Source of the DNA: a virus
Lineage: Duplodnaviria > Caudoviricetes
Direction: 5' to 3' (one strand)
Length of the DNA: 64,000 bases
Virus record (IMG/VR): IMGVR_UViG_2516653005_000001
Coordinates: 36,993-100,992 of that record
Part shown: piece by piece, positions 4,957-55,022 of the stretch
Layout of the letters: every line of letters starts with the position of its first letter
How positions within the stretch are numbered: the first letter of the stretch is position 1
Position numbers and translations under genes: made by a program
The notes under the pieces: generated by a model
The model's database searches: none
What the model was told of the DNA's origin: nothing
What the model saw: only the letters and a program-made list of their open reading frames with translations

Positions 4957-5030
4957 TGGCACCAGAGGAAGGACTCGAACCTTCGCGCAGCGGTTTTGGA
5001 GACCGTGCGGCTACGCCGGAGCGCTCTGAT
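4957..5030 (-). tRNA. tRNA-Trp(CCA), atypical short D-arm
   Basis: ATCAGAG/CTCTGGT acceptor, CT-CCA-AA loop, GAAGG-TTCGAGT-CCTTC, CCA end; C8 and shortened D region. Confidence 0.75.
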
Positions 5031-6716: not shown

Positions 6717-7140
6717 GGGCCAGCACGATTAGAGATCCGCCTGTGCCAGGATCGCGCCTGGCTGCGATTTCGACTGCCGAGAGCGCGTCGGCACCGGCCT
6801 CCATCGCACCGAGCGCAAACTCCTTGCCCGAGCCGATCGCGGTAAACTTGTCGGTCAACACAAACGACCCATCGGCCTCGTAGAGGCGGATGACACCGTT
6901 CTTGAAGGCGATGATGCCGCGATCGGTTTCGCCGGCCTCAGGCGGCGGCGTGTCTTCGCCGGCTTCCAGAAACCATCGCCGGAACTTTTCGGCGTATACT
7001 GTGCCGCCGGCAGATCCTGCCAGTGCGCCGTCGCGGTCCCGGCGGTAGATCTTGACGCAGTCGGACGAGACGATGGCGTAGCCCTGGATCATCCGCCCAT
7101 CGGCGGCCATCTCGCCATCCCTGTAGGCGATCGTCGTCAT
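6709..7140 (-). CDS. Ntn-hydrolase (HslV/proteasome-beta-like) protein
   Basis: Start reassigned to ATG 7140: MTTIAY...AADGR, AIGSG..FALGAM, D..TGG. Confidence 0.7.
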   Translation of the reverse strand: MTTIAYRDGEMAADGRMIQGYAIVSSDCVKIYRRDRDGALAGSAGGTVYAEKFRRWFLEAGEDTPPPEAGETDRGIIAFKNGVIRLYEADGSFVLTDKFTAIGSGKEFALGAMEAGADALSAVEIAARRDPGTGGSLIVLAHA

Positions 7141-15254: not shown

Positions 15255-15518
15255 GTGACCATGGGCAAGCGAAAAGACGGTCGCGCCATCACCCCTTACG
15301 CCGGGTCATGGGCGCAGATACAGGCGGCCCGCACCCGCCCGCAATACAACATCCGCCTCACCTACGTGGACGGAAAGCGGAAGTGGAAGGCTGATCGCCA
15401 GCACGCTGACGGTGCCGTTACGCACCTCGATGTCTTCGACAGCCGCAAGCAGGCAGAAACAACGATACGCCTACTCGCCGGTCCTGGCGGGGACGTCACA
15501 ATCCTCGATTACATCTGA
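15255..15518 (+). CDS. Hypothetical protein
   Basis: In-line ORF. Confidence 0.6.
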   Translation: MTMGKRKDGRAITPYAGSWAQIQAARTRPQYNIRLTYVDGKRKWKADRQHADGAVTHLDVFDSRKQAETTIRLLAGPGGDVTILDYI

Positions 15519-15525
15519 GGGGCAC

Positions 15526-15939
15526 ATGACCAACTACTACACCGACTTCGCGGCGGAGTTTCCGCTGCATACGCCGGAGAACGTGGCCAAGGCCTTGCAG
15601 ATCAAGGAGGCGCTGGCCGAGGAGTTCGCCGAACAATGTTGGCCGCTGTTCGAGATGACGGTGAATGCAGACAAGAACAGTCTGTTCTTCACCGGAGACG
15701 GCGATCCCGAACACGTCATCATCTTCATCGAACGACTGGCTAAAGCCCTCAATCTGAGCGGCAAATGGGGCTTCGAGTGGTCGCATGGCTGCGACAAGGC
15801 GCGGACCGATGCGTTCGGCGGCGGCGCAGTCGTCATCGACCTTGCGACCGGCGTCGCGTCAGAGACGATCCACACAAGCGTCTGGCTCGAAGAGCGCACT
15901 GGCGCTCCGTCTCAACCCGCAATCGTGACCCAGCAATAG
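15526..15939 (+). CDS. Conserved hypothetical protein
   Basis: GAGGGG RBS; WGFEWSHGCDKARTDAFGGGAVVI. Confidence 0.7.
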   Translation: MTNYYTDFAAEFPLHTPENVAKALQIKEALAEEFAEQCWPLFEMTVNADKNSLFFTGDGDPEHVIIFIERLAKALNLSGKWGFEWSHGCDKARTDAFGGGAVVIDLATGVASETIHTSVWLEERTGAPSQPAIVTQQ

Positions 15940-15948
15940 GAGGAAGCA

Positions 15949-16164
15949 ATGGGAAGCTTCATGCACATCAAGAAGGGCGATGTCGTCACGCGGCGCATCG
16001 CCGGAGCGGCAGAGATGACCCTGCAGGTCACCGATGTCACCGATACCCACATCATCTGCGGCGCGTGGCAGTTCGACCGCAAGAGTGGCGTGGAAGAGGA
16101 CGGCGAACTCCGCTGGGGTGTCCAGTTCGGCGTGTCCGGCTCCTGTCTCGTCGAAGCCGCATAG
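15949..16164 (+). CDS. Hypothetical protein
   Basis: AGGAGG RBS. Confidence 0.7.
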   Translation: MGSFMHIKKGDVVTRRIAGAAEMTLQVTDVTDTHIICGAWQFDRKSGVEEDGELRWGVQFGVSGSCLVEAA

Positions 16165-16172
16165 GTGCAACC

Positions 16173-16469
16173 ATGAACATCTACCGCGTTCCCATCATCA
16201 TCGCCGGCAGCGCCTATGTGCTGGCCAGCTCCATGGTCGAGGCGCAGCGGGCGGTCGGCATGATGTCCGATATGTCGATCGAGGTTCAGGAGGACGAGAC
16301 CCAGGAGGTGCCGATCTCAGGACGTCGTCTCGATGACCCGGACCTCCCTGACGTATCGATCTCGCCGGCCATGACTGTGGTCGGTATCGAGCCCGATAGC
16401 TCTCCAGAACTGGTTGACACGTCGGCCCTGCCCGAAGTGGACGACACCGACGAACTGCAGGCGGCGTGA
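16173..16469 (+). CDS. Acidic hypothetical protein
   Basis: ATG 16173 after AGGT. Confidence 0.65.
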   Translation: MNIYRVPIIIAGSAYVLASSMVEAQRAVGMMSDMSIEVQEDETQEVPISGRRLDDPDLPDVSISPAMTVVGIEPDSSPELVDTSALPEVDDTDELQAA

Positions 16470-16479
16470 GGCCTTTCCC

Positions 16480-16644
16480 ATGATCATCAAGGCTAAGACC
16501 GATAAGGCGTACGCTCAGGCGTGCAACCTTCCCTTCTCGCTTCCACTTCCATTTCCGAATGTGGATGTCGACCCGAGCTATCTGCACGTTCTCGATCTGC
16601 GCCAGTTCGAGACGGTGGATGGAGGCGTCGTTGAGCCGGCCTAA
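16480..16644 (+). CDS. Hypothetical protein
   Basis: GAGG RBS, MIIKAKTDK. Confidence 0.5.
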   Translation: MIIKAKTDKAYAQACNLPFSLPLPFPNVDVDPSYLHVLDLRQFETVDGGVVEPA

Positions 16645-16678
16645 CGCATCATCCAACCAATCACCAACCAAGAGGTTC

Positions 16679-17423
16679 ATGACACATATCCCGAAGATAC
16701 GGGGAGAGGGTGCTCCCAAGTAGTAGCACCACGCCGAAAGGCGCTGAACGAGGCGTTACTGGACGCCTACAACCCCGTACATAGCTCCCTCATCTTTGGA
16801 GCAGCCTAAAACCTGCCGGTCACAAGGCGTCATAGGCGACACTTACGTCGCAGGCTGTGGCCCTTCCGACCAATCACATCTGATCGATGGACGATTGCAA
16901 GTCCTTGAAACGCACGGTCGCAGCCTCCGCAAAGCTGCCGCCCGGCTGGAGCGAATGCCAGCCACCCATTCCAATCCACTCGCCGGGGGTTCGCGCCAGG
17001 TTCGCCAGCGCAATAGCCCTTAACCTGCAGAGTGAACCTACGCGTTAAAGCCGGGCGCGTAGGCGTAAGCATGCCGGCAACGGCTCTCAGTGAGACCCTA
17101 GCTAAGAGGCCTTAAGCCGTAGGCCTGGCGAGGATGGGTCGACCTCAACAATGTGGTGAACGTTTGCGCGGACCGAAAGCCCCGCGCTCATGAGAGGCTG
17201 CGCGAGCCAAAATCGCGAACCGAGACCGGCGGGATAACCGGTCAACACTTTCCGCTGGAGCACGTAAGTCATCATGCCTCCGGTAAGGGGTTGCGCCGAG
17301 TGATATCCGACGCGCCACATCCGCCGAGAGCTGCAAGGTCAAGAGGGTGATGGACTAAAGCCCGAGAATGGCCGCTCGTGGTCTCGGATCGTTTTCCGGT
17401 GCGCTGCTCCAGCGGAAAGTGTT
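16679..17423 (+). ncRNA. Candidate large, highly structured ncRNA
   Basis: More than 15 visible stems, GNRA loops and a perfect 19-bp inverted repeat; no credible long ORF. Confidence 0.65.
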
Positions 17424-17448
17424 CACCAACTGAAGGAACGACCATTCC

Positions 17449-17694
17449 ATGCCCATCGATGTGATTGAGATTGATCCTGCGGTTGCGGAGCGCACTGAAA
17501 TCGTCAATGCCACAACCTACGATGCGCGCAAGGTCATCATCGATGGCGATGAACTCATCGTCATGATCTACGGCAGCGGCCCAAGCGATCACATCCATCG
17601 TATCGCGCGGATGATCGACGCGATGACATTCATCAGCCTCGCACCGAGCGGCGATGTGAGCATCAAGCAAAGAACGGTGACTGTGTCGCGATGA
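17449..17694 (+). CDS. Hypothetical protein
   Basis: AAGGA RBS. Confidence 0.6.
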   Translation: MPIDVIEIDPAVAERTEIVNATTYDARKVIIDGDELIVMIYGSGPSDHIHRIARMIDAMTFISLAPSGDVSIKQRTVTVSR

Positions 17695-18155
17695 CATGCG
17701 CAACGTGTCGCTGGTTCGATCCAGACTTCGCGCCTGACGACGATCCAGCGGAGGCGCTGGGTCTATGTACATGGCCCGCAGAACGCTTGCCCATTTCCCT
17801 CGAATGGGGAAATCGCGAGCGACGCGCTGTGTCCCCGCTTGACGGCGCTAATTGCTATTGCCTTGAGCCCTCAACAGATAGGTGCGCCATGCCATACTAC
17901 ACAGACAACCGGTTCGATGATGGCCACGCCACGGCTTACTGCGCGGCAAAACCAATCGGTCCGGGTGGAAGGACTGTGCATTTCTGGGCCAGCACAAAAG
18001 CGCTACCTGGTTATCCGGGCTGGCATTTCCTGACCATGCATGCCGATCGGTACGACTCCATGGAATGCTCGACGCGCGATGTCATTGGAACGATTGCCGA
18101 GATGCAGGCGGCGTGGGAGCTCGACCTAACGGCTCGTTACGGAGCCTCTGCGTAA
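17691..18155 (+). CDS. Cys-rich hypothetical protein
   Basis: MTCATCRWF; ATGA overlap. Confidence 0.55.
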   Translation: MTCATCRWFDPDFAPDDDPAEALGLCTWPAERLPISLEWGNRERRAVSPLDGANCYCLEPSTDRCAMPYYTDNRFDDGHATAYCAAKPIGPGGRTVHFWASTKALPGYPGWHFLTMHADRYDSMECSTRDVIGTIAEMQAAWELDLTARYGASA

Positions 18156-18315
18156 CGACTAGATCAACAGACTATATCAATTTGCGCCGTGGTTCCTGGC
18201 GCAATGCTGCCCCGCCGCACGGGGTAGTGCGGTTGGAGTGTTCCTGTCCCTGACGAGTTGCCCGTCAGCGACGGTCGAGCACTCGCGAACCGCATATTTT
18301 CCTTCGGAGGCACCC

Positions 18316-18699
18316 ATGAGCTATTCTTGCACCGACTTCACCGACGACATTCTCGACGCTCTTGGCATCGTGGTACCTGACGAAAGCCTGGAGTGCCCCG
18401 ATGATCAAGCTGCTCTCGCCCTTGCCGAGATCAACCGCATGAAACAACTGATCGAGGACCGCTCTCCGATCGCGGTCATCCTCGAAGGAGGGCTGTGTCA
18501 GTGCGTCGTCTCTAAGAGTCCGTTGATGGTCGGCCGCCCCTATATCGTGATCGATTACGACACCGATGGCGCCGATGATGACGACGATAAGATCGTGGAC
18601 GTCGAGCAAGCGGACGGATCGACATCCGACGCTTTCGTCAGTGGAGGCAAGATCACCGAGGCCACGATCATCATTCCCGTCGAGGGAGCCCCGGAATGA
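18316..18699 (+). CDS. Acidic hypothetical protein
   Basis: GGAGG RBS; LEGGLCQ...VIDYDTDGAD. Confidence 0.7.
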   Translation: MSYSCTDFTDDILDALGIVVPDESLECPDDQAALALAEINRMKQLIEDRSPIAVILEGGLCQCVVSKSPLMVGRPYIVIDYDTDGADDDDDKIVDVEQADGSTSDAFVSGGKITEATIIIPVEGAPE

Positions 18700-20550: not shown

Positions 20551-20625
20551 GCTCCGCTCGTCTATCGGCTAGGACGCTCGCTTCTCAGGCGAGAAAGACA
20601 GGTTCGACTCCTGTGCGGAGCACCA
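20551..20625 (+). tRNA. tRNA-Glu(CUC), A73
   Basis: CTCGC-TTCTCAG-GCGAG, 4-nt variable loop, ACAGG-TTCGACT-CCTGT, CCA. Confidence 0.93.
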
Positions 20626-20669: not shown

Positions 20670-20746
20670 GCTCCCATCGTCTATCGGCTAGGACACCGTC
20701 CCCCTCAGGACGGAAAGGCGCGGTTCGAGTCCCGCTGGGAGCGCCA
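20670..20746 (+). tRNA. tRNA-Glu-like gene with 8-nt anticodon loop (CCCCUCAG) and bulged T-stem
   Basis: GCTCCCA/TGGGAGC; CCGTC-CCCCTCAG-GACGG; GCG(C)GG-TTCGAGT-CCCGC; G-CCA; 77 nt. Confidence 0.85.
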
Positions 20747-20769: not shown

Positions 20770-21768
20770 ATGAAACTCGAAAATATCGGCTTCTACACGC
20801 TCTCCGATTTCAGAGCGCAACATGCGTCTGCAACGTCCGATCTCAAGCGCTGCGAGGTCGTGCTGACATCGCGCTGCAACTTCAACTGTCCCTACTGCCG
20901 GCATGTCGGCGGCGACGACCTGGCTCTCGAACACGCCAAGACTGTGGTGAAGCTGTGGGCGGCTGACAACCTGTCCGCGATCCGCTTCTCCGGCGGAGAA
21001 CCGACGCTGTATCCAGGTCTCGGCGAGCTGGTCGATCTGTCCGCGTCTCTCGGCATCGGCCGCATCGCCATCTCATCGAACGGCTCGATCGCGTGGCGTC
21101 GCTACCAGGAGCTGATCAATCGGGGCGTCAACGACTTCTCGATCTCGCTGGACGCTTGCTGCGCCGAGGTCGGCGACAAGATGGCCGGCGGCATCAAAGG
21201 CGCATGGGCCAAGGTTGTCGCCAACATCGAGCGGATCAGCGCGGCAACCTACACGACGGTCGGCGTCGTCCTCACCGAGGACAATATCAAGACTGTCAAC
21301 GACATCATCCGTTTCGCTGCCGGCCTCGGCGTTGCCGATATCCGCATCATTCCTGCGGCCCAGGACGGCGACCGCCTGCGCGGCGTGGAGGTCGATCAGG
21401 ATCTGCTCGACAAGTTCCCGATCCTGAACTACCGGATCAAGAACTTGCAGGCCGGTCGGCCAGTGCGCGGCGTCTCCAAGACCGACACCCCGAAGTGCGG
21501 CCTCGTCCTCGACGACATGGCCGTGTGCGGGGACGAGCACTACCCCTGCATCATCTACATGCGTGAGGGCGGCGCTCCGATTGGTAAGGTCGGCCCGAAC
21601 ATGCGGTCCGAACGCGAGGCGTGGCACGCGACCCACAATTCGCGTCTCGACCCGATCTGCAGCCGCAACTGCCTCGACGTTTGCGTCGACTACAACAACA
21701 AGCACGCCAACTTCGCTTGCGCCAAGATGCGCAAGATGCAGGAGCGGGAATACGCAATCGCGTGCTGA
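20770..21768 (+). CDS. Radical SAM protein with C-terminal auxiliary-cluster cysteines
   Basis: CNFNCPYC, SGGEP, SISLD; C...YPC...CSRNCLDVC. Confidence 0.92.
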   Translation: MKLENIGFYTLSDFRAQHASATSDLKRCEVVLTSRCNFNCPYCRHVGGDDLALEHAKTVVKLWAADNLSAIRFSGGEPTLYPGLGELVDLSASLGIGRIAISSNGSIAWRRYQELINRGVNDFSISLDACCAEVGDKMAGGIKGAWAKVVANIERISAATYTTVGVVLTEDNIKTVNDIIRFAAGLGVADIRIIPAAQDGDRLRGVEVDQDLLDKFPILNYRIKNLQAGRPVRGVSKTDTPKCGLVLDDMAVCGDEHYPCIIYMREGGAPIGKVGPNMRSEREAWHATHNSRLDPICSRNCLDVCVDYNNKHANFACAKMRKMQEREYAIAC

Positions 21769-23546: not shown

Positions 23547-23741
23547 ATGCCCGAATACTCTATTCGTGATTGCGGGCAGGAGTCGGTCAAGGTGTTCCGA
23601 AAGCGCGAGCGCTCACACTCGCTCGCGCATGCTTGGAGAACACCGAGTGGCTTCTGGATCGTCAGTGTCACCGGCCTCAAAATGGACGTAACCCCCAACA
23701 GGAAGTCCGCCAAGGACTATCTGAGGAAGTATTTCAAATGA
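23547..23741 (+). CDS. Hypothetical protein
   Basis: GGAGG RBS. Confidence 0.6.
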   Translation: MPEYSIRDCGQESVKVFRKRERSHSLAHAWRTPSGFWIVSVTGLKMDVTPNRKSAKDYLRKYFK

Positions 23742-25081
23742 TCACCGGAGACACACTGATCCTGTGGGGCTTTAAGCCAGGCCGCTGGTTCAAACAGGCC
23801 ATCGCCGATGCCAACAAGCTGCGGAGCGACGGCCTGAGCGACGATCAGATCTTCACCTATCTGCAATCGCTGCAGCCGGTCGAGATCACGCTGCGGACGA
23901 ACTCGCTTCCCTATGGCATTTTCATCGATCACAACACTGATCAAGAGCGAGCCAACGTCGAAGCTGTCGTTCGACACATGGATGCGCTGATGCGCGTGCC
24001 GACCATCAAGGATGGCGCGGTCATGCCGGACTCTTGCCCCGCCGGCGCTGCCGAAGGCACGATTCCAGTCGGCGGCGTCGTCTCCTGCGAAGACGCTATC
24101 CATCCCGGCTTCCACTCGGCGGATATCTGCTGTTCGGTCGCGATCAGCACCTTCCGCCGCGACGACAACCCGAAGGTCCTGCTCGACGCCGTCCAGGCCG
24201 TCACGCATTTTGGACCCGGCGGGCGTTCGAGGTCGAACAACCTTGTTCCGAAGGAACTCCTGGCCAAGATGGACGGCAACCGCTTCCTGCACGAGCTGGA
24301 AGGCTATGCACGCGCCCACTTCGCCACACAGGGTGACGGCAACCACTTCGCCTACGTCGGACGGGTGAAATCAAGCGGTAAGCTGGCGCTTGTCACCCAT
24401 CACGGCTCGCGTGGCTTTGGTGCTCAGGTCTACAAGCGCGGCATGGCGGCGGCCAAGAAGCACACCGCGATCGTCGCCCCGAAGGTGCCGGCACACAACG
24501 CCTGGATCAAGGCGGACAGTGACGATGGCCGCGCCTATTGGGAGGCTCTCCAGGTTGTCCGCGAATGGACCAAGGCGAACCACTTCGCGATCCACGATCT
24601 GGCCGCCCGTGCCATCGGCAACGGCGTCGACGAACGCTTCTGGAACGAGCACAACTTCGTCTTCCAGAAGAGCGACGGGCTGTTCTACCACGGCAAGGGC
24701 GCGACCCCGAATTGGTCCGGCTTCTCACCCGACGACTCCGGCCTCACGCTCGTTGCCCTGAACATGGCCGAGCCGATCTTGATGTTGGCGCACACCAACA
24801 ACAAGGAAGCCCTCGGCTTTGCTCCGCACGGAGCCGGTCGCAACATGGGTCGCAGGGCATTCCTTCGCGACAATGCGCCGGAGCTTCCGGCCGGCATCGA
24901 CGCCCGCTTCTACTGCGGCAAGCCCGATCTCGCAGAACTTCCGCAAGCCTATAAGGATGCGGCTTCTGTTCGAGCCCAGATCGACAAGTACCAGATCGGC
25001 CGCGTCGTCGATGAGATCATTCCCTACGGCTCGATCATGGCCGGCGATTGGGAGAAGGACGCACCATGGCGAAAGAAGTGA
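23738..25081 (+). CDS. rtcB: RtcB family RNA ligase
   Basis: MPD, DICCS, GDGNHF, HHGSRG, NEHNF, HGKGA, PHGAGR, ELPQAYK; start at ATG 23738. Confidence 0.92.
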   Translation: MITGDTLILWGFKPGRWFKQAIADANKLRSDGLSDDQIFTYLQSLQPVEITLRTNSLPYGIFIDHNTDQERANVEAVVRHMDALMRVPTIKDGAVMPDSCPAGAAEGTIPVGGVVSCEDAIHPGFHSADICCSVAISTFRRDDNPKVLLDAVQAVTHFGPGGRSRSNNLVPKELLAKMDGNRFLHELEGYARAHFATQGDGNHFAYVGRVKSSGKLALVTHHGSRGFGAQVYKRGMAAAKKHTAIVAPKVPAHNAWIKADSDDGRAYWEALQVVREWTKANHFAIHDLAARAIGNGVDERFWNEHNFVFQKSDGLFYHGKGATPNWSGFSPDDSGLTLVALNMAEPILMLAHTNNKEALGFAPHGAGRNMGRRAFLRDNAPELPAGIDARFYCGKPDLAELPQAYKDAASVRAQIDKYQIGRVVDEIIPYGSIMAGDWEKDAPWRKK

Positions 25082-47004: not shown

Positions 47005-48132
47005 TTGATTTCTGAACCCATCTACAAGCGCGACTCGGCCGGAAAAATCCGGACCTGGCAGTACGAGGTAGACGGTGCTGCCTATCGCACCATCGCCGGC
47101 ATCGAAGGCGGGAAGCTGGTGACGTCCGGCTGGACCGAATGCGAGCCGAAGAACGTCGGCAAGAAGAACGAGACGACACCCGAACAGCAGGCACTGGCGG
47201 AGGCTGTTGCTGAAGAAAAGAAGAAGCTGAAGCGGGAATATCGCAAGACCGTTCCGGAACTGGAGTTCGTGCCGAACGGGCCGATGCTTGCCGAGACCTA
47301 TGGCAAACACAAGTTCTCTCTCGACTTCGAGACCGGCATCTTCGCTCAGCCGAAGCTAGACGGCATCCGTGCTTTCATGAACATCAAGCACGGCGCAACG
47401 ACGCGCGAGTTTCAGCCGCATCCCAACTGCACGCATCTGATGGCACGTCTCGTGCCGCTGTTCGCCAAGTACCCCGACATCATCTTCGATGGTGAGCTGT
47501 ACAACCACGACTACAAGGATGCGTTCAACGAACTGTCCGGCATCATCCGGAGGGAGAAGATCACCGAGGAAGATCGTAAAAAGGTCCATTCAATCGTTCA
47601 GTTTCACGTCTACGACCTTCCCAGCGAGCGCCCATTTGCCGAGCGGACCGCCCAGCTGAAGCAGATGCTGACCGAGCTGAACGACCCGATGATCGTGTAC
47701 GTCGACACGGTACGTGTTCAGGACCAAGATCACCTCGACAGCCTGAATGCGCAGTTCATCTGCGACGGATACGAGGGGCAGATGGTCCGGCTTGGACATG
47801 AGCCGTACTACTTCGACAGCCGTCCTTGGGCGCTGATGAAGCGCAAGGACAAGTTCGTCACTGAGGAGTTCCCGGTCAAGCGGATCGAGGAAGGCACCGG
47901 CAATTGGGCCGGTGTCGCCAAGCGGGTTGTTCTCGACATCCCGACCGCCCCCCGTGGCGAGGTTGGAGCGGGAATGAGGGGGTCGAAGGAGTTCGCGCGC
48001 GAGATGATGACGAAGGTCAAGGCTGGGCAGACGCCGAAGCTCGCGACTATTCGCCACTTCGGCGTGACGCCTGACGGCTCCCTTCGTCATGCCGTCGCTG
48101 TCGACTTCTTCGACGAAGAAAGGATGGACTGA
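47005..48132 (+). CDS. ATP-dependent DNA ligase
   Basis: PMLA, QPKLDGIR, FDGELY, HVYD, GYEGQMVR, LMKRK; ATT start after AGGAG. Confidence 0.92.
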   Translation: MISEPIYKRDSAGKIRTWQYEVDGAAYRTIAGIEGGKLVTSGWTECEPKNVGKKNETTPEQQALAEAVAEEKKKLKREYRKTVPELEFVPNGPMLAETYGKHKFSLDFETGIFAQPKLDGIRAFMNIKHGATTREFQPHPNCTHLMARLVPLFAKYPDIIFDGELYNHDYKDAFNELSGIIRREKITEEDRKKVHSIVQFHVYDLPSERPFAERTAQLKQMLTELNDPMIVYVDTVRVQDQDHLDSLNAQFICDGYEGQMVRLGHEPYYFDSRPWALMKRKDKFVTEEFPVKRIEEGTGNWAGVAKRVVLDIPTAPRGEVGAGMRGSKEFAREMMTKVKAGQTPKLATIRHFGVTPDGSLRHAVAVDFFDEERMD

Positions 48133-48292
48133 TGGAGTGGTTATTATTCTTGGCAGCGCTTCGGTCTGGGAAGTCATCTCCCGACGACGATAGCTCCATC
48201 GCCTACACGGCGGTGGCTGTCATACTCGCCGTCTGCGCGATCGTAATGATCGTCGCTCTTGCTTTCAAATTGGTGCAGTAAGGCTTGCTTGA

Positions 48293-49375
48293 ATGCAAAA
48301 CAACAACAAGCAGGTTGATTTTGCGGTCTTCATCGGCCGCTTTCAGCCTCTCCACTTAGGCCACCAACAGGTGATCGACGAGGCGCTTCGGCAGGCTCGG
48401 CATGTCATTATTCTTGTCGGCTCCTCCTTCAGCTCGCGCAGTCCGCGCAATCCGTTCACGTATAACGAGCGGGCGAACATGATCGTACGCGCTTATCCTC
48501 AAGCGGTTGCTGAGAACCGTTTGTCGATCAGGCCGCTCACCGACTTCCCGTATGACGACAAGGCATGGGTCAACAAGGTCGAGCACACGGTCAACCGCGT
48601 TGTGCTGCAGCAGCTGAACCATGGACTGAACGTTACTCTGCACGGTGTTAACGACGCATCCATTGCGTTGATCGGGTTCGCGAAGGATCACACCAGCTAC
48701 TACCTCAAGATGTTTCCGAGGTGGTCGTCGATCAACGTAGTGCCCAACACGAACATCGATGCCACTTCGATCCGGAACGACTATTTCACCTCTGGACGGA
48801 TCGACTTTGCGTCGCTCTCCAAGAGCATTGGCGAGATCGTCTTCGAGTTCCTTGGAACGCCGGCTTACGATTGGCTTGTCGCGGAGCACTGCTTTAACGC
48901 AGGCTACAAGGCCGAATGGAGCCAGTCGCCCTATCCTCCCACATTCAACACCGCTGATGCGGTCGTTGTGCATCGTGACAAGGTGCTGCTCGTCGAACGC
49001 GGAAGGCACCCTGGAAAAGGGCTGTATGCCGTGCCTGGAGGGTTCGTGAACCCTCACGAGAGGCTTTTCAGCGCCGCCATTCGCGAACTTCTTGAAGAGA
49101 CGGAGATCCGAGGTCCCAATGGAATCATGTCCAGCGAACAACTCGCTGCGATGATTCAAGGCCCGCCGGTCGTCTTCGACGCTCCACATCGATCAGAGCG
49201 GGGACGCATCTTCACGCAGGCATATCTGTTCAAGATCCCTGACGACTTTGAAACGCCGACTCTGACGGCGTCGGACGACGCCAGCGACGCCTTCTGGCGT
49301 CACAGGGACATGCTCGATCCGCCGCTTTTCTTTGAAGATCACTACCACATCGTCACGACCATGATTGGAAATTGA
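48293..49375 (+). CDS. nadM: Bifunctional NMN adenylyltransferase/Nudix hydrolase
   Basis: GRFQPLHLGH, RNPFT, ATSIR; Nudix box PGGF...AAIRELLEET; FEDH. Confidence 0.95.
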   Translation: MQNNNKQVDFAVFIGRFQPLHLGHQQVIDEALRQARHVIILVGSSFSSRSPRNPFTYNERANMIVRAYPQAVAENRLSIRPLTDFPYDDKAWVNKVEHTVNRVVLQQLNHGLNVTLHGVNDASIALIGFAKDHTSYYLKMFPRWSSINVVPNTNIDATSIRNDYFTSGRIDFASLSKSIGEIVFEFLGTPAYDWLVAEHCFNAGYKAEWSQSPYPPTFNTADAVVVHRDKVLLVERGRHPGKGLYAVPGGFVNPHERLFSAAIRELLEETEIRGPNGIMSSEQLAAMIQGPPVVFDAPHRSERGRIFTQAYLFKIPDDFETPTLTASDDASDAFWRHRDMLDPPLFFEDHYHIVTTMIGN

Positions 49376-49376
49376 C

Positions 49377-50783
49377 ATGGCGAACAATCTCATCCTCCGC
49401 ACCGACAGCTACAAACTCAGCCACCCGTTCCAACTGCCGCTAGGCACGACGCGAATGTCGGCCTATATCGAGGCTCGAAATGGCGGCGATTTCGACGAGG
49501 TGACGTTCTTCGGATTGCAGATGTTTCTGCTGAAGTACCTCTCCAGGCGCGTCGCCTACAGTGATGTCGTCGAAGCGAAGAAGCTCGCCAAGGGGCACGG
49601 CGAACCCTTCGCCGAAGACGCTTGGATGACCATCGTGAAGGAGCATGACGGCATTCTGCCGCTGAAGATCGAGGCGATCCCTGAGGGGCTGACAGTCCCA
49701 ACCGGGACGCCGCTGGTTCAGGTGTCGAACACCGACCCGCGTTTCCCGTGGTTGACGACATTCATCGAGACGCAACTGCTGCGCGCCGTCTGGTATCCAT
49801 CGACGGTCGCCACGCTGTCACGCCATGCCAAGCAGATCATCTACGACGGCCTGGTTCATACAAGCGACGATCCGGATGGGCAGATCAGTTTTAAGCTGCA
49901 CGACTTCGGCGCTCGTGGCTGCACGAGCAGTGAGCAGGCTGAAATCGGCGGTCTTGCCCACCTCGTGAACTTTCTGGGGACCGATACCGTCGAGGCGCTT
50001 GTTGCAGCGCGGAAATACTACGACGAACCGATGGCTGGTTTCTCGATCCCGGCGGCTGAGCACTCGACGATCACGGCATGGGGTCAGGAGAACGAAACTG
50101 CGGCGTATCGCAACATGCTTCAGCAGTTTGGCGGCGACAAGAAGCTGGTCGCGGTCGTTTCGGATTCCTACGATCTCTTCAATGCCGTCGAGAACATCTG
50201 GGGCGTCGAGCTGCACGACGAAGTCCTGGCGACCGGTGGCACGCTAGTGGTCCGCCCTGACTCCGGCAATCCGGTCGACACTCCGATCGCTGTCATCGAG
50301 AAGCTCGCGGAAAAGTTCGGCTTCACGACCAACAGCAAGGGTTACAAGGTGCTCCACCCGAGTGTTCGCGTGATCCAAGGGGACGGAATGTCCTTGTTGA
50401 ACATCAAGCGTCTGGTGTGGTCGATGACACTGAAGGGATGGTCGATCGACAACATCGCGTTTGGTATGGGCGGCGGTCTGCTGCAGGACGTCAATCGAGA
50501 TAGCATTCGCTTCGCGATGAAGGCTAACCAGATTGAGGTCGACGGCGTCGAGCGAGACATCTGCAAGAAGCCGAAGACTGATCCTGGCAAGGCTTCCAAA
50601 GCCGGCCGCCAGCAAGTCTGGAGGACGCAGGATGGCCGGTTCTTCTCGACCAGAGAGGGCTGCAATGATCTCGTCCAGAAGGGCGACGAGCAGATCCTTA
50701 AGCTGGTTTGGCAGAACGGCAATCTCTACGAGAAGCGGACCCTGGCGGAGATCCGCCAGAATGCCCAGCTTCGCCGGGCTTGA
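49377..50783 (+). CDS. nadV: Nicotinamide phosphoribosyltransferase
   Basis: TDSYKLSH, LHDFGARG, PAAEHS, VSDSYD, RPDSG, IQGDG, FGMGGGLLQ. Confidence 0.96.
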   Translation: MANNLILRTDSYKLSHPFQLPLGTTRMSAYIEARNGGDFDEVTFFGLQMFLLKYLSRRVAYSDVVEAKKLAKGHGEPFAEDAWMTIVKEHDGILPLKIEAIPEGLTVPTGTPLVQVSNTDPRFPWLTTFIETQLLRAVWYPSTVATLSRHAKQIIYDGLVHTSDDPDGQISFKLHDFGARGCTSSEQAEIGGLAHLVNFLGTDTVEALVAARKYYDEPMAGFSIPAAEHSTITAWGQENETAAYRNMLQQFGGDKKLVAVVSDSYDLFNAVENIWGVELHDEVLATGGTLVVRPDSGNPVDTPIAVIEKLAEKFGFTTNSKGYKVLHPSVRVIQGDGMSLLNIKRLVWSMTLKGWSIDNIAFGMGGGLLQDVNRDSIRFAMKANQIEVDGVERDICKKPKTDPGKASKAGRQQVWRTQDGRFFSTREGCNDLVQKGDEQILKLVWQNGNLYEKRTLAEIRQNAQLRRA

Positions 50784-51656: not shown

Positions 51657-54600
51657 ATGAGAATTGAGCGACGATTTACGGTCGACGGTGATCCCTATGC
51701 GGGCATCTCCTTCAAGACTGCGTCCAGCGAAATCCGTAAGCCGGACGGCACGGTCGTGTTCAAGATGGACAACATCGAGGTTCCTGCGGACTGGTCCCAG
51801 GTCGCCATCGATGTTCTGGCGCAGAAATACTTCCGCCGCGTCGGCGTTCCTTCGGCCACTATGGATGTGCAGGACTTCACGGTCCCGCAGTGGCTCCGTC
51901 CGCGCACGGCATCATATTGCGACGGTTACGGCTTGCCTGTTACCTATGGTCCCGAAACGTCGGCGAAGCAGGTCTTCGATCGCCTGGCCGGGTGCTGGAC
52001 CTATTGGGCCTTCAAGAACAATTACTTCGGCGAGTACGTGGTCGAGGACGACGGATCGGTCAATCCTGATGTCGATGCGAGCGCTCGCGCTTTCTACGAT
52101 GAGCTGCGTTTCATGCTGGCGACGCAGATGTTCGCGCCGAACAGCCCGCAGTTCTTCAACACCGGCCTACACTGGGCTTATGGCATCGACGGCCCTGGCC
52201 AGGGCCATTGGTACGTCGACCCGCGCATCAAGGGGCTGAACCAGCTGGTGCAATCGGCCTCGTCCTACGAACGCCCGCAACCTCACGCCTGCTTCATCCA
52301 GTCGATTGACGACAACCTGCTGCAGGAAGGCGGGATCATGGACCTGTGGGTGCGTGAAGCTCGCTTGTTCAAGTACGGCTCCGGCACCGGCACCAACTTC
52401 TCGACGCTCCGAGGTAAGGGTGAAAAGCTCTCAGGCGGCGGCCGTTCGTCCGGGCTTCTATCGTTCTTGAAGATCGGTGATCGTGCCGCTGGCGCGGTCA
52501 AATCGGGTGGAACGACGCGCCGTGCGGCAAAGATGGTCATTCTCGACATCGATCATCCGGACATTGAGGAGTTCATCGACTGGAAGGTCGAGGAGGAGCA
52601 GAAGGTCGCCGCCCTCGTGGCCGGCTCAAAGGCTGCTCGGAAGCATCTGTACGCCATCTATGATGCCGTCTCGCAACTGGAGCCCTACACTGATCTGGTG
52701 AAGGAAGCTCGCGCTGCGTTCGTCCCGGACAGCTACATCAAGCGCGTCATCCAGATGGCGGAGTCTGCAGAGCCATTCCACTTTCCTGTCTACGACGTGG
52801 ATTGGGAGTCGAAGGCCTACGAGACCGTGTCTGGCCAGAACTCGAACAACACCGTGTCGCTCAGCAATGCGTTCCTGCGTGCCGTGGAGAGTGGTCGCGA
52901 TTGGGATCTGATTGGCCGCACCGATGGGAAGGTCGTGAAGACCATCAACGCGACCTATCTTTGGGACAAAATCGCATCGGCGGCGTGGAGCTGTGCCGAC
53001 CCTGGCCTGCACTTCAACGACACGATCAACGAGTGGCACACCTGCCCTGCCGGCGGAAAGATCCGGGCTTCGAACCCGTGTTCGGAGTACCTTTTCCTCG
53101 ACGATACGGCGTGCAACTTGGCTTCGCTGAACTTCATCAAGTTCTATGATGTCGCTAATAACTGTTTCGGCACCGACGACTTCATTCACGCCAGCCGGCT
53201 GCTGACCATCGTTCTGGAAGTGTCGGTTGCGATGGCGCAGTTCCCGTCTCGCGAGATCGCTCGGCTTTCTTATGACTACCGGACACTTGGTCTCGGCTTC
53301 GCCAATCTTGGTGGGCTGCTGATGTCCATGGGCATTCCGTATGACTCGGATGACGGTCGCGCTTTGGCCGCCGCGCTTTCGGCGATCATGACGGCGACCG
53401 CTTACCGTACGTCTGCGGAGATGGCCAAGGAGCTTGGCACCTTCCTGCGGTTCCAAGAGAACCGGGACGCCATGTTGCGTGTGATGCGCAATCATCGTGC
53501 GGCGGCGGACGGCGGTCTGTTCGAGGGCCTGACCATCGAGCCGGTCCGTCTGTCTAAGACGAACCCGATCCCGGAGCTGCCCGTGATTGCTGCCAAGCTT
53601 TGGCGGGATGTTTGCGAGATGGGCGAGAAGTACGGCTTCCGCAATGCTCAGACGACTGTGGTTGCCCCGACCGGCACGATCGGCCTTGTCATGGATTGCG
53701 ACACGACCGGCATCGAGCCTGATTACGCACTTGTCAAGTTCAAGTCGCTGTCTGGCGGCGGGAGCTTCAAGATCATCAATCAGGCCGTTCCGACCGCGCT
53801 GCGACGCCTCGGCTATACCGAGACACAGATCAAGGACGTCGTCGAATACGTCACCGGCACCGGAGTGCTACCCAAGGCATTCTGGAATGCCCTGAAGAAC
53901 TTCGGCACTTCCGACACCGAAATCCCGTCGACGATCTTTGATATCCGTCTCCTGGCGGATTGGAAGGCACTCGGCTTTAGCGAAGAGGAGATCGAGAAGG
54001 TAAACGCTGAGGTCTGCGGAACGATGACCGTCGAAGGTGCGCCGCACCTCGTCGAGGATGACTATGCCGTGTTCGACTGCGCCAGCCCGTGTGGCCGGCT
54101 CGGCAAGCGGTCTATCTCGGTCGACGGTCACATCAAGATGATGGCTGCGGTTCAGCCGTTCATTTCGGGGTCGATCTCCAAGACCATCAATATGCCCCAC
54201 GATGCCTCGGTCGAGGACATCAAGGCGGCCTACATGAAGTCTTGGAAGCTTGGCCTGAAGTGTAACGCCATCTACCGTGATGGATCGAAGCTTTCGCAGC
54301 CGCTGACCACGTCGCTGGTCGACGATGAGCCGGTGATCTTGTCGCAGAACAAGACAGAGGCCGTCGTTCAGGTCGTCGAGAAGATCGTTCGTCAGCGCGA
54401 GAAGCTGCCGAACAGGTGCTCCGGCTATCGTCAGAAGGCGGTCGTCGGAGGGCACAAGGTCTACCTGCGCACCGGCGAGTATCCTGACGGTCGGCTCGGC
54501 GAAATCTTCATCGACCTTCACAAGGAGGGCGCGGCCTTCCGATCGATGATGAATGCCTACGCCATCGCCGTCAGCATCGGCCTGCAATACGGCGTGCCGC

Positions 54601-55022
54601 TGGAGGAGTACGTCGACGCGTTCACCTTCTTCCGGTTCGAGCCCTCTGGTTTTGTCCAGGGTCATGACCGGATCAAGAACTCGATGTCGATCATCGACTT
54701 CATCTGGCGCGATCTCGCGATCAACTACCTCGATCGCAAGGATCTCGCCCACGTTGATCCTCAGGACGAGACGCATTCGACGGTCGGCAAGGGTCTCAAC
54801 GAGGGCAAGCCGGAAGTCGTCACCGGGGTCACCATCACCAGTGGCGGTCCGGGAACGGTGACCGTGATCGCGCCCAAGGTGGAGACGATCGACAAGATCT
54901 CGGCCGCTCGTCAACAGGGGTATACGGGCGACTCCTGTCATGCCTGCGGGCAGTTCACGATGGTCCGCAATGGGACGTGCTCGAAGTGCGTCTCGTGTGG
55001 CGAAACGACCGGCTGCTCGTGA
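51657..55022 (+). CDS. nrdJ: Class II (B12-dependent) ribonucleotide reductase
   Basis: PNSP, HACFI, ASNPCSE, APTGT, YRDGSK, C-terminal Zn ribbon. Confidence 0.97.

Follow-up and report, generated by a model that had tools for sequence, protein, structure and literature searches.

A putative new family of pseudoknotted RNA in an intergenic gap of Bradyrhizobium phages related to BDU-MI-1

The DNA analysed here, hereafter the window, is a 64,000-nucleotide (nt) stretch of phage sequence, corresponding to bases 36993–100992 of a 100,992-nt IMG/VR record that is labelled there as a provirus. Its large terminase, TerL, is 80% identical and its rIIA protein 45% identical to those of Bradyrhizobium phage BDU-MI-1, whose host is Bradyrhizobium diazoefficiens USDA110 (record KY940711). 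Within a rightward block of small genes there is a gap at 16645–17448, opened by the stop codon of a called gene of 54 amino acids (aa; 16480–16644, + strand) and closed at its 3′ boundary by a called gene of 81 aa (17449–17694, + strand) with an AAGGA 10 nt upstream; both genes occur in the protein collection. An earlier note on this DNA had read the gap as a large and almost fully paired RNA of ~740 nt. We find that the gap does contain a structured + strand RNA, but that it is not supported as a single molecule of ~740 nt, since only a core of ~207 nt (17037–17243) has comparative support. This core, which appears to represent a new pseudoknotted RNA family, lies between a lineage-specific 5′ flank (16645–17036) and an add-on hairpin domain (17244–17423).

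The gap is non-coding. It has no called gene and no open reading frame (ORF) longer than 80 codons, and codon-phase periodicity is lost, in keeping with the earlier description of a long gene-free interval; the three-phase GC signal is 0.28–0.38 in the flanking genes and 0.04–0.22 within 16750–17424. None of the eight gap ORFs that were looked up occurs in a collection of 15 billion proteins, the 80-aa ORF on the minus strand has no homologue, and no open frame spans the RNA element in the window or in three of its relatives (G412, G410, and G408). A 14-codon mini-ORF behind an AAGAGG (16679–16723, + strand), which the earlier note had also pointed out, is indeed present and overlaps the first predicted helices, but its status as a gene is unsupported, the longer in-frame form of 54 aa (16559–16723) being missing from the protein collection. 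The GC content of the gap is 0.56–0.62 with no AT-rich stretch; there are no iterons, the direct repeats are short and imperfect, and there is no promoter-like or terminator-like site in 15500–18500.

Direct searches with the gap and its neighbours recovered little. There was no blastn match to the gap in 50,697 phage records and no match to the flanking proteins in IMG/VR; BLAST against the BDU-MI-1 genome gave chance matches only (E values of at least 0.3), and among 401 Bradyrhizobium-family genomes there were only matches of 28–38 nt, in five genomes, no two of them to the same part of the query. The route to relatives was through an alignment of the window and BDU-MI-1 TerL proteins, which retrieved 49 IMG/VR loci. 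BLAST of the gap against 19 TerL-related records returned one match, to window positions 17076–17216 at 72% identity, in the record G412; a two-sequence model (R1) added a weak match in G411, and a three-sequence pattern (CCTAGCT, a gap of 10–30, and GCCTGGCNANGATGG) was found in five stretches in all of IMG/VR, all of them in TerL-related phages. A covariance model built from six sequences (R2) gives 11 matches at E≤1e-22 in 52 phage records, namely the window record, G402, G403, G406, G407, G408, G409, G410, G411, G412, and BDU-MI-1, the last of these at 108993–109151 inside a 269-nt unannotated gap between two small coding sequences. A further pattern scan of IMG/VR returned nine stretches, eight in records already known and one in a new record, IMGVR_UViG_3300046457_000175 (UViG175), which scores 110 bits. 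The window itself scores 116.5 bits over 17084–17243, all of the helices can be drawn at 17037–17243, and the conserved sequence boxes are at 17097–17137, such that it falls within the family that the model describes.

A match to R2 is present in five of the eight records that are at least 90% complete, and in 151 Bradyrhizobium-family genomes there was no convincing match (two were partial, with E values of 0.003–0.01). In all, 12 family members have been seen, together with a ~95% identical contig (X3), and all of them belong to one phage clade; in what was searched, the RNA family thus appears to be confined to BDU-MI-1-type Bradyrhizobium phages. A 225-kb phage contig (L014, the same as L022) carries a CxxC gene, but the sequence upstream of it is densely packed with ORFs and neither R1 nor R2 matches; on a Bradyrhizobium chromosome (L013) the RNA is missing, and of a downstream gene there is only a 32-aa fragment. 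Three gaps of 675–850 nt in BDU-MI-1 (folding z scores of −4.18, −1.42, and −1.95) are unrelated to the RNA and consist of repeats and AT-rich sequence.

The conserved unit is ~207 nt long in the window and 210–290 nt in its relatives, and has at least eight helices. In most relatives it begins at the upstream stop codon or a few bases past it, with GAGGCCCC. The first hairpin, P0 (17037–17063; CCUACGCG ... CGCGUAGG with loop UUAAAGCCGGG), has a pair probability of 0.97, and in relatives it is found at the same place with variable stems and a similar loop, for example GUGUGCGG-UAAAGCGGU-CCGCACAC and GAGUGCAG..CUGCACUC; in the family a short CCCC/GGGG helix encloses it. The centre of the element is an irregular hairpin in which three helices of the RNAalifold consensus, P2 (17094–17098 with 17136–17140), P2b (17101–17103 with 17127–17129), and P1alt (17107–17112 with 17121–17126), stack around an invariant CUAG. 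The six base pairs of P1 form a pseudoknot with this hairpin, as its 5′ strand (17080–17085, ACGGCU) pairs with 17114–17119 (AGCCGU), the 3′ portion of the P1alt loop. A near-invariant GCCUGGCGAGGAUGG box lies at 17123–17137 and has the family form GCCUGGCGA(G/U)GAUGG; it is followed in the family order by a conserved CAUGAUG..GUUYGCG and by the hairpins P3, P4′, and P5. P3 (17166–17187, GCGCGG ... CCGCGC; pair probability 0.99) has an A-rich, GAAA-containing loop, with a GAGAAA-type family form; P4′ (17201–17217, CGCGA/UCGCG) has a conserved GCCAAAA loop with the family form (A/G)CC(C)AAA; and the terminal hairpin P5 (17224–17243, GACCGG ... CCGGUC) has the family form GGCCGG...CCGGCC, often followed by CAAUUC.

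The earlier note had proposed an alignment of homologues as a check for covariation; relatives are now at hand, and the core helices do covary. In the model-fitted alignment (A11, with ten distinct rows), 93.6% of 311 cells pair, compared to 86.8% in shuffles, and 11 of the 32 pairs change on both sides, compared to 2.6 in shuffles, with none of 500 shuffles being as high. When the partner strand is slid by one to three columns as a control, pairing falls to 25.6–46.8%. For the individual helices, P2 is paired in 97.5% of cells with two of its four pairs doubly changed, P2b in 100%, P1alt in 77.8%, P4′ (helix 7 of A11) in 91.1% with five of nine pairs doubly changed, and P5 in 100% with one pair doubly changed, and the outer three pairs of P3 are kept in 96.7% of cells. 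The exchanges in P2 can be followed by eye, being GACCC/GGGUC in the window, GGGUC/GACCC in G408, GGCC/GGCC in most members, and GGCU/AGCC in UViG175. G-U pairs are frequent (for example, UG is present in 8–9 of the ten rows at three P4′ pairs), and on the opposite strand they would read as A-C mismatches; because G-U pairs work on one strand only, we assign the structure to the + strand.

The pseudoknot helix P1 provides a case that does not depend on the fitted alignment. Its strands are ACGGCU/AGCCGU in the window, ACGGUC/GACCGU in G412, GGGCCA/UGGCCC in G411, GGACGA/UCGUCC in G402, G403, and G407, GGACCA/UGGUCC in G410, ACACCA/UGGUGU in BDU-MI-1, and GGGCCA/UGGUCC in UViG175; it is incomplete in G406 and G409 (five of six pairs) and in G408 (four pairs). 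When each 5′ strand is tested with its own partner, all six pairs form in eight of 11 sequences, compared to two of 98 combinations with a foreign partner. On a plain MAFFT alignment of ten relatives, unfitted to any structure and excluding the window and G412, whose 3′ strand is set two columns off, five of the six P1 pairs are doubly changed, 93.3% of cells pair, and none of 500 shuffles reaches the covariation score.

The core does not correspond to any RNA family in Rfam 15, which includes models for GOLLD, ROOL, introns, RNase P, and transfer-messenger RNA (tmRNA), and by this measure it appears to be a new family. At gathering score the window gives only seven tRNA matches, the region 16400–17700 gives none even at E≤10, and the loci of seven relatives give nothing at the RNA at E≤1; the Infernal comparison that the earlier note proposed thus places it outside GOLLD and ROOL, to neither of which the note could match it by eye. 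ARAGORN on positions 1–30000 likewise finds seven tRNAs, none of them in the gap, and no tmRNA, which together with the Rfam result excludes tRNA, tmRNA, and RNase P. A group I or II intron was rejected for want of an Rfam match, and also because the flanking ORFs are separately called genes and the neighbours in other members are unrelated. A riboswitch is not supported, as the downstream genes differ, there is no terminator-like site, and no riboswitch model matches. A bacterial Y RNA of the YrlA type was rejected as well: the TROVE domain (PF05731) is present in none of the four phage records examined, compared to two positives in 14 control genomes, and no Rfam model matches, such that a Y-RNA-like role together with the RtcB ligase encoded downstream has no support. 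One paper refers, in the passages covered, to tRNA and tmRNA genes in other Bradyrhizobium phages but not to this RNA (PMC12656738), and no description of it was found in the open literature searched on BDU-MI-1 and Bradyrhizobium phages.

The folding energy of the gap reflects chiefly the parts on either side of the core. The whole gap has a minimum free energy (MFE) of −323.1 kcal/mol, compared to −285.97±7.83 kcal/mol for shuffled sequences (z −4.74, with none of 20 shuffles as good), and the minus strand has a z score of −3.39. By part, 16645–17036 has a z score of −3.09 (none of 100 shuffles as good), 17037–17242 of −1.33, and 17240–17430 of −4.80, and the signal therefore comes mainly from the inverted-repeat domain and the 5′ part. 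The complementary segments that had been named by eye are all present: TACGGGG at 16698–16704 with CCCCGTA at 16773–16779, GGTGCT/AGCACC, CGCC-GAAA-GGCG, and AGGCGT/ACGCCT towards the 5′ end, and then ACCCAT/ATGGGT, CTCGCCGGG/CCTGGCGAG, CCTACGCG/CGCGTAGG, and GCCG-GCAA-CGGC. However, three of them compete with helices that have covariation support, ACCCAT/ATGGGT and CTCGCCGGG/CCTGGCGAG with P1alt, P2b, and P2, and GCCG-GCAA-CGGC with P1, and for that reason these three probably do not belong to the functional fold. In the single-sequence fold, the long-range helices linking the flank with the core, including 16988–17009 with 17197–17221, compete in the same way with P4′, P2, P2b, and P1alt.

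The 5′ flank (390 nt) is structured and lineage-specific. It has no BLAST match in 19 related phage records and no blastn or tblastx match at the loci of ten relatives; it is present at ~95% identity in the X3 contig, and its segment 16698–16875 is 99% identical in another contig, X4. In G408 the place that the flank occupies here is taken by a different small gene, with the 54-aa gene homologue before it and the RNA after it. Near its 5′ end is a predicted three-hairpin junction (16691–16799, + strand) that comprises the junction of the earlier note, with MFE helices at pair probabilities of 0.8–0.98. Further downstream, the stretch 16870–16975 (+ strand) may hold the 3′ half of the family a second time, in degenerate form. 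R2 with its filters off scores 13.3 bits at 16840–16963 (E 3.5e-4 in 1.2 kb), and R3, a model of the family 3′ half built without the window sequence, scores 13.4 bits at 16870–16975 (E 0.016 over the 64-kb window). The match consists of a P4′-like hairpin with a CUCCGCAAA loop (16920–16924 with 16934–16938), a P5-like hairpin (16944–16949 with 16958–16963), and a CCAAUCC after it; a decayed tandem copy is a possible reading that we hold with low confidence.

The 3′ domain (17244–17423, 180 nt, + strand) is a long hairpin with a perfect 19-bp stem, 17244–17262 with 17405–17423, enclosing 142 nt of further structure. The inverted repeat noted previously is confirmed and is slightly longer than was described, with arms of 23 nt at 17240–17262 and 17405–17427 that are 96% complementary and include the 19 perfect pairs. 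The proposal that this domain closes the 3′ end of the RNA does not hold up, as it is absent from ten of the 11 other members; G407 has an unrelated inverted repeat of ~17 bp at the same site, and in the X3 relative positions 17311–17423, the 3′ half of the domain, are replaced by 100 other letters. In six of about nine sequence types the next gene starts 20–28 nt after P5, and in G406, G409, and G410 a second conserved hairpin motif is found in place of the domain. Because the site varies among relatives and the 3′ half is replaced in X3, the 19-bp-stem domain is best regarded as a variable, lineage-specific add-on outside the conserved RNA, and the simplest reading is that it is a processing or stabilising hairpin. 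It was also considered as a miniature inverted-repeat transposable element (MITE) or other small mobile element; the terminal repeats are present, but it is single-copy in the 101-kb record, it has no copy in the 401 host-family genomes or the phage collection, and it has no flanking direct repeat. As for the second motif, it reads ACCGGUGAA(G/C)CCGCGAGCGACCGGAC followed by a GC-rich hairpin, and occurs in several BDU-MI-1-like phages directly past the RNA or one small gene further on (L072 at ~2010–2100; L075, minus strand, at ~1130–1215; L087–L089 directly after the RNA); there is no ACCGGUGAA.CCGCGAGCGACCGGAC in the window.

A close relative provides a measure of constraint. The X3 contig (83,541 nt, from a public run) is ~95% identical to the window over 15949–17310 and 17424–18299, with small indels at 17111, 17279, and 17284. 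Of the 66 substitutions in 15949–17310, the 40 that are listed reach to 16589, and no more than 26 can therefore fall in the non-coding 16590–17310; divergence is thus at most 3.6% there, compared to 6.2% and 4.9% in the flanking coding sequence. The gene at 16173–16469 has 22 changes, and 18 of these affect third codon positions, of which it has 99. The non-coding stretch would accordingly have changed about five times less than near-neutral synonymous sites in this relative.

Taken as a whole, the locus is probably a composite on the + strand, made up of the conserved core, the 5′ flank, and the 3′ add-on, and we consider this the best overall explanation; in the structural and family claims for the core itself we have considerably greater confidence. 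The genes flanking the element differ between members on both sides, and it therefore behaves as an independent module and not as the leader of one particular gene. Transcription within a rightward early polycistronic RNA seems most likely, because no promoter or terminator is seen and the element abuts the upstream stop codon in relatives; two RNA sequencing runs (X9 and X10) gave 0 reads on the stretch, which does not bear on this either way. In such a transcript the irregular P2-P2b-P1alt hairpin would present its apical loop to the upstream P1 strand, amid the near-invariant unpaired CUAG and GCCUGGCGAGGAUGG, and the pseudoknotted centre could bind one particular partner, most probably a protein of the host or of the phage; host RNases might first cut the RNA out, or binding might take place while it is still in the transcript. 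The long 3′ hairpin might be an RNase III-type processing or stabilising site. Specific partner recognition is suggested by the size, the pseudoknot, and the invariant unpaired bases, and RNAs that combine eight or more helices with a covarying pseudoknot and invariant unpaired bases most often prove to be ribozymes or riboswitches, or else to belong to RNA-protein machines. We nevertheless offer a partner-binding RNA, processed from or acting within the early transcript, as a tentative proposal that may well be wrong.

Several observations weigh against these conclusions. There are ~9 distinct sequence types from one phage clade and the covariation rests on few independent events, and alignment A11 was fitted to the structure of the model, which favours that structure. 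The MFE of the core on its own is unremarkable, with its z score of −1.33. P1 and P1alt may be unable to form together, as some members use the whole 6-nt loop, and the fold may then be two alternative states instead of a single one. G405 (IMGVR_UViG_2927454664_000002; 120,844 nt, rated 100% complete, with a TerL 78% identical) is a complete relative with no R2 match at E≤1, and either lacks the RNA or carries a version too divergent to detect. There is no link to a protein: TROVE/Rsr is encoded in none of the four phages, and the neighbouring genes are without family. The substitution argument from X3 assumes that the substitutions are listed in positional order and takes one gene as its yardstick, and recombination mosaics could also give rise to uneven divergence in this relative. 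The second-copy match in the 5′ flank is weak, at 13 bits, and R3 has a comparable match (14.7 bits, E 0.006) at 6733–6839 on the minus strand. We note of the latter site that it falls within an ORF on the minus strand, close to the tRNA cluster of that strand, and that it is probably a chance match.

The alternative that fares best is that the element acts in cis within the early operon, by processive antitermination as known from HK022 put, by regulating how the next cistron is translated, or by giving protection from RNases, with P1 and P1alt perhaps serving as a switch. We regard this as possible, and somewhat less likely than partner binding. The element lies on the same strand as all of its neighbours with no promoter or terminator found, and in relatives it starts at or near the upstream stop and ends ~20–28 nt before the next start (in G402, G403, G411, G408, BDU-MI-1, and G412); moreover, covariation is seen in P1 as well as in P1alt, which compete for space, and in G406, G409, and G410 the element is followed by the second conserved motif and by a hairpin resembling a terminator. 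However, the downstream gene varies, encoding small basic, membrane-like, acidic, or 81-aa proteins, which would be unusual for a riboswitch, and there is no sign of an expression platform, neither a U-tract terminator nor visible pairing with the next ribosome-binding site. The put RNA consists of two simple stem-loops of ~70 nt just after the promoter; the RNA described here resembles it in being a folded sense-strand RNA in a putative early transcript, with no terminator of its own and indifferent to the identity of the downstream gene, but it is three to four times larger, pseudoknotted, and situated deep in the operon directly after a stop codon, and its 210–290 nt and eight or more helices place it far beyond the size of known put or nut-type elements. 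We observe separately that the gene after the RNA in G411 (L085:1334–1474, minus strand), G402, and G403 encodes a very basic 46-aa peptide (MKKRKT..RSPIARDLRTPKYKPRVVPNKKRKA..) with no Pfam match.

A bolder version of these ideas, that the family is a new functional class of RNA with an architecture on a par with riboswitches or ribozymes, in which P1 and P1alt vie for one hairpin loop as a switch or a catalytic pseudoknot in phage early transcripts, and that it is here duplicated and extended to a GOLLD-sized ~780 nt, is speculative and we rate it as rather unlikely. A little less likely still is that the gap encodes one RNA of ~780 nt in the GOLLD/ROOL size class, in which a 5′ domain, in part a tandem duplication, and the 3′ hairpin have been added to the core. 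GOLLD and ROOL are structured RNAs carried by phages, conserved over ~500–800 nt and tending to adjoin tRNA genes in phages or prophages, and there are certainly likenesses, as the RNA here is phage-borne, structured, and found in tRNA-carrying genomes, and the total non-coding span of ~780 nt in the window is in their size range. The flanks as well as the whole gap fold better than shuffled sequence, as given above; 16590–17310 diverges less than the flanking coding sequence, so that even with an unchanged core the rest would differ by 5% at most; and tRNA genes lie 3–4.5 kb and RtcB 6 kb downstream. On the other side, the 11 other members do without both flanks, the long-range helices between flank and core compete with covarying family helices, and the closest relative has replaced the 3′ half of the hairpin domain. 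There is no covariance-model match to GOLLD or ROOL, the conserved unit is 210–290 nt and restricted to one clade of alphaproteobacterial phages, and the nearest tRNA genes on the + strand are at 20551 and 21777, at least 3.1 kb downstream, with similar spacing in BDU-MI-1.

It is improbable that the early transcript is cut between cistrons by the element, acting as a self-cleaving ribozyme or as a module for RNase-guided processing. Such a role would account for the compact pseudoknot, the near-invariant unpaired bases, and the exact position between cistrons, and a long RNase III-like hairpin adjoins the element in two members; but none of the Rfam models for hammerhead, twister, pistol, hatchet, hepatitis delta virus (HDV)-like, or group I and II intron RNAs matches, and the order of helices differs from the HDV-like and pistol folds. 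The pairing of six bases of a 5–9-nt loop with a distant strand, as in P1 and P1alt, is a feature shared with loop pseudoknots and kissing loops such as those of pistol, the human immunodeficiency virus (HIV) DIS, and TAR-TAR*, but in this case the partner strand is upstream of the hairpin, and no described motif has the same conserved bases and helices around it. The stretch 17244–17423 likewise resembles the RNase III hairpins of T7 early mRNA in being a long and nearly perfect duplex between cistrons, differing in that the stem encloses 142 nt and that its 3′ arm is not kept in a 95% identical relative. Finally, a feature acting as DNA (a replication origin, a packaging site, or an inserted MITE) or a remnant of decayed genes is very improbable in spite of the resemblance of the perfect 19-bp inverted repeat to the termini of small mobile elements and of the small gene at the place of the 5′ flank in G408, given that the helices keep pairing through double changes with G-U pairs that are valid on one strand only, that iterons and AT-rich stretches are lacking and the inverted repeat is single-copy and absent from the 401 host-family genomes, and that no protein similarity was found in the gap.

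The composite reading illustrates how a gap that looks fully paired when a single sequence is read can be pieced together from a conserved RNA and additions peculiar to one lineage. To our knowledge, phages have so far yielded few structured RNAs of this kind, and the phages that infect nitrogen-fixing rhizobia none. The narrow distribution, in one phage clade, limits generality; the family does occur in a cultured phage-host pair, BDU-MI-1 on B. diazoefficiens USDA110, which makes it directly testable.

Of the ten neighbours of the gap, seven have no PHROG match and nine no Pfam match. The downstream 81-aa protein has neither a Pfam nor a PHROG match; an 81-aa relative is encoded on the 83,541-nt contig, and the 54-aa and 81-aa flanking genes each keep their length in a relative. 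Further downstream on the + strand are tRNA genes at 20551, 20670 (Rfam only), and 21777, found with Rfam and ARAGORN, a radical-SAM gene (20770–21768), and an RtcB RNA ligase gene (23570–25081) ~6 kb from the gap.

ORF 17691–18155 (154 aa) spans two genes that are separate elsewhere, one for a CxxC protein (with homologues P0006 and in L014) and one for an 88-aa protein starting at 17889 (P0001), which has homologues in unclassified Bradyrhizobium; gene callers called only the 88-aa part. In ORF 15765–16469 (234 aa) the real gene is the last 98 aa only (16173–16469), which belongs to a large family of ~85-aa proteins without a Pfam match, as 187 representatives (E≤1e-3) all align to residues ~132–234. 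The phage also encodes, together with RtcB, an ATP-dependent DNA ligase, a nicotinamide mononucleotide (NMN) adenylyltransferase/NUDIX-like protein, a nicotinamide phosphoribosyltransferase, and the large subunit of a class I ribonucleotide reductase (23570–25081, 47005–50783, 51657–55022), and these genes amount to a set for RNA repair and salvage of nicotinamide adenine dinucleotide (NAD).

Two features of BDU-MI-1 were seen in passing. At ~99,723–99,823 (+ strand; L021:19724–19824) there is a sub-threshold match to the alphaproteobacterial small RNA family suhB/mmgR (RF00519), with 37 bits compared to a gathering score of 41 (E 1e-4), and at ~100,064–100,737 (L021:20065–20738) a 674-nt gap has several direct copies of CUGGCUGGACAACCCC-like units and looks like iterons or a regulatory repeat array. 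In the window, the tRNA callers differ at two sites: a weak Rfam tRNA (36 bits) at 20670–20743 on the + strand is not found by ARAGORN, and a tRNA-Trp called by ARAGORN at 4957–5030 on the minus strand is absent from the Rfam gathering list.

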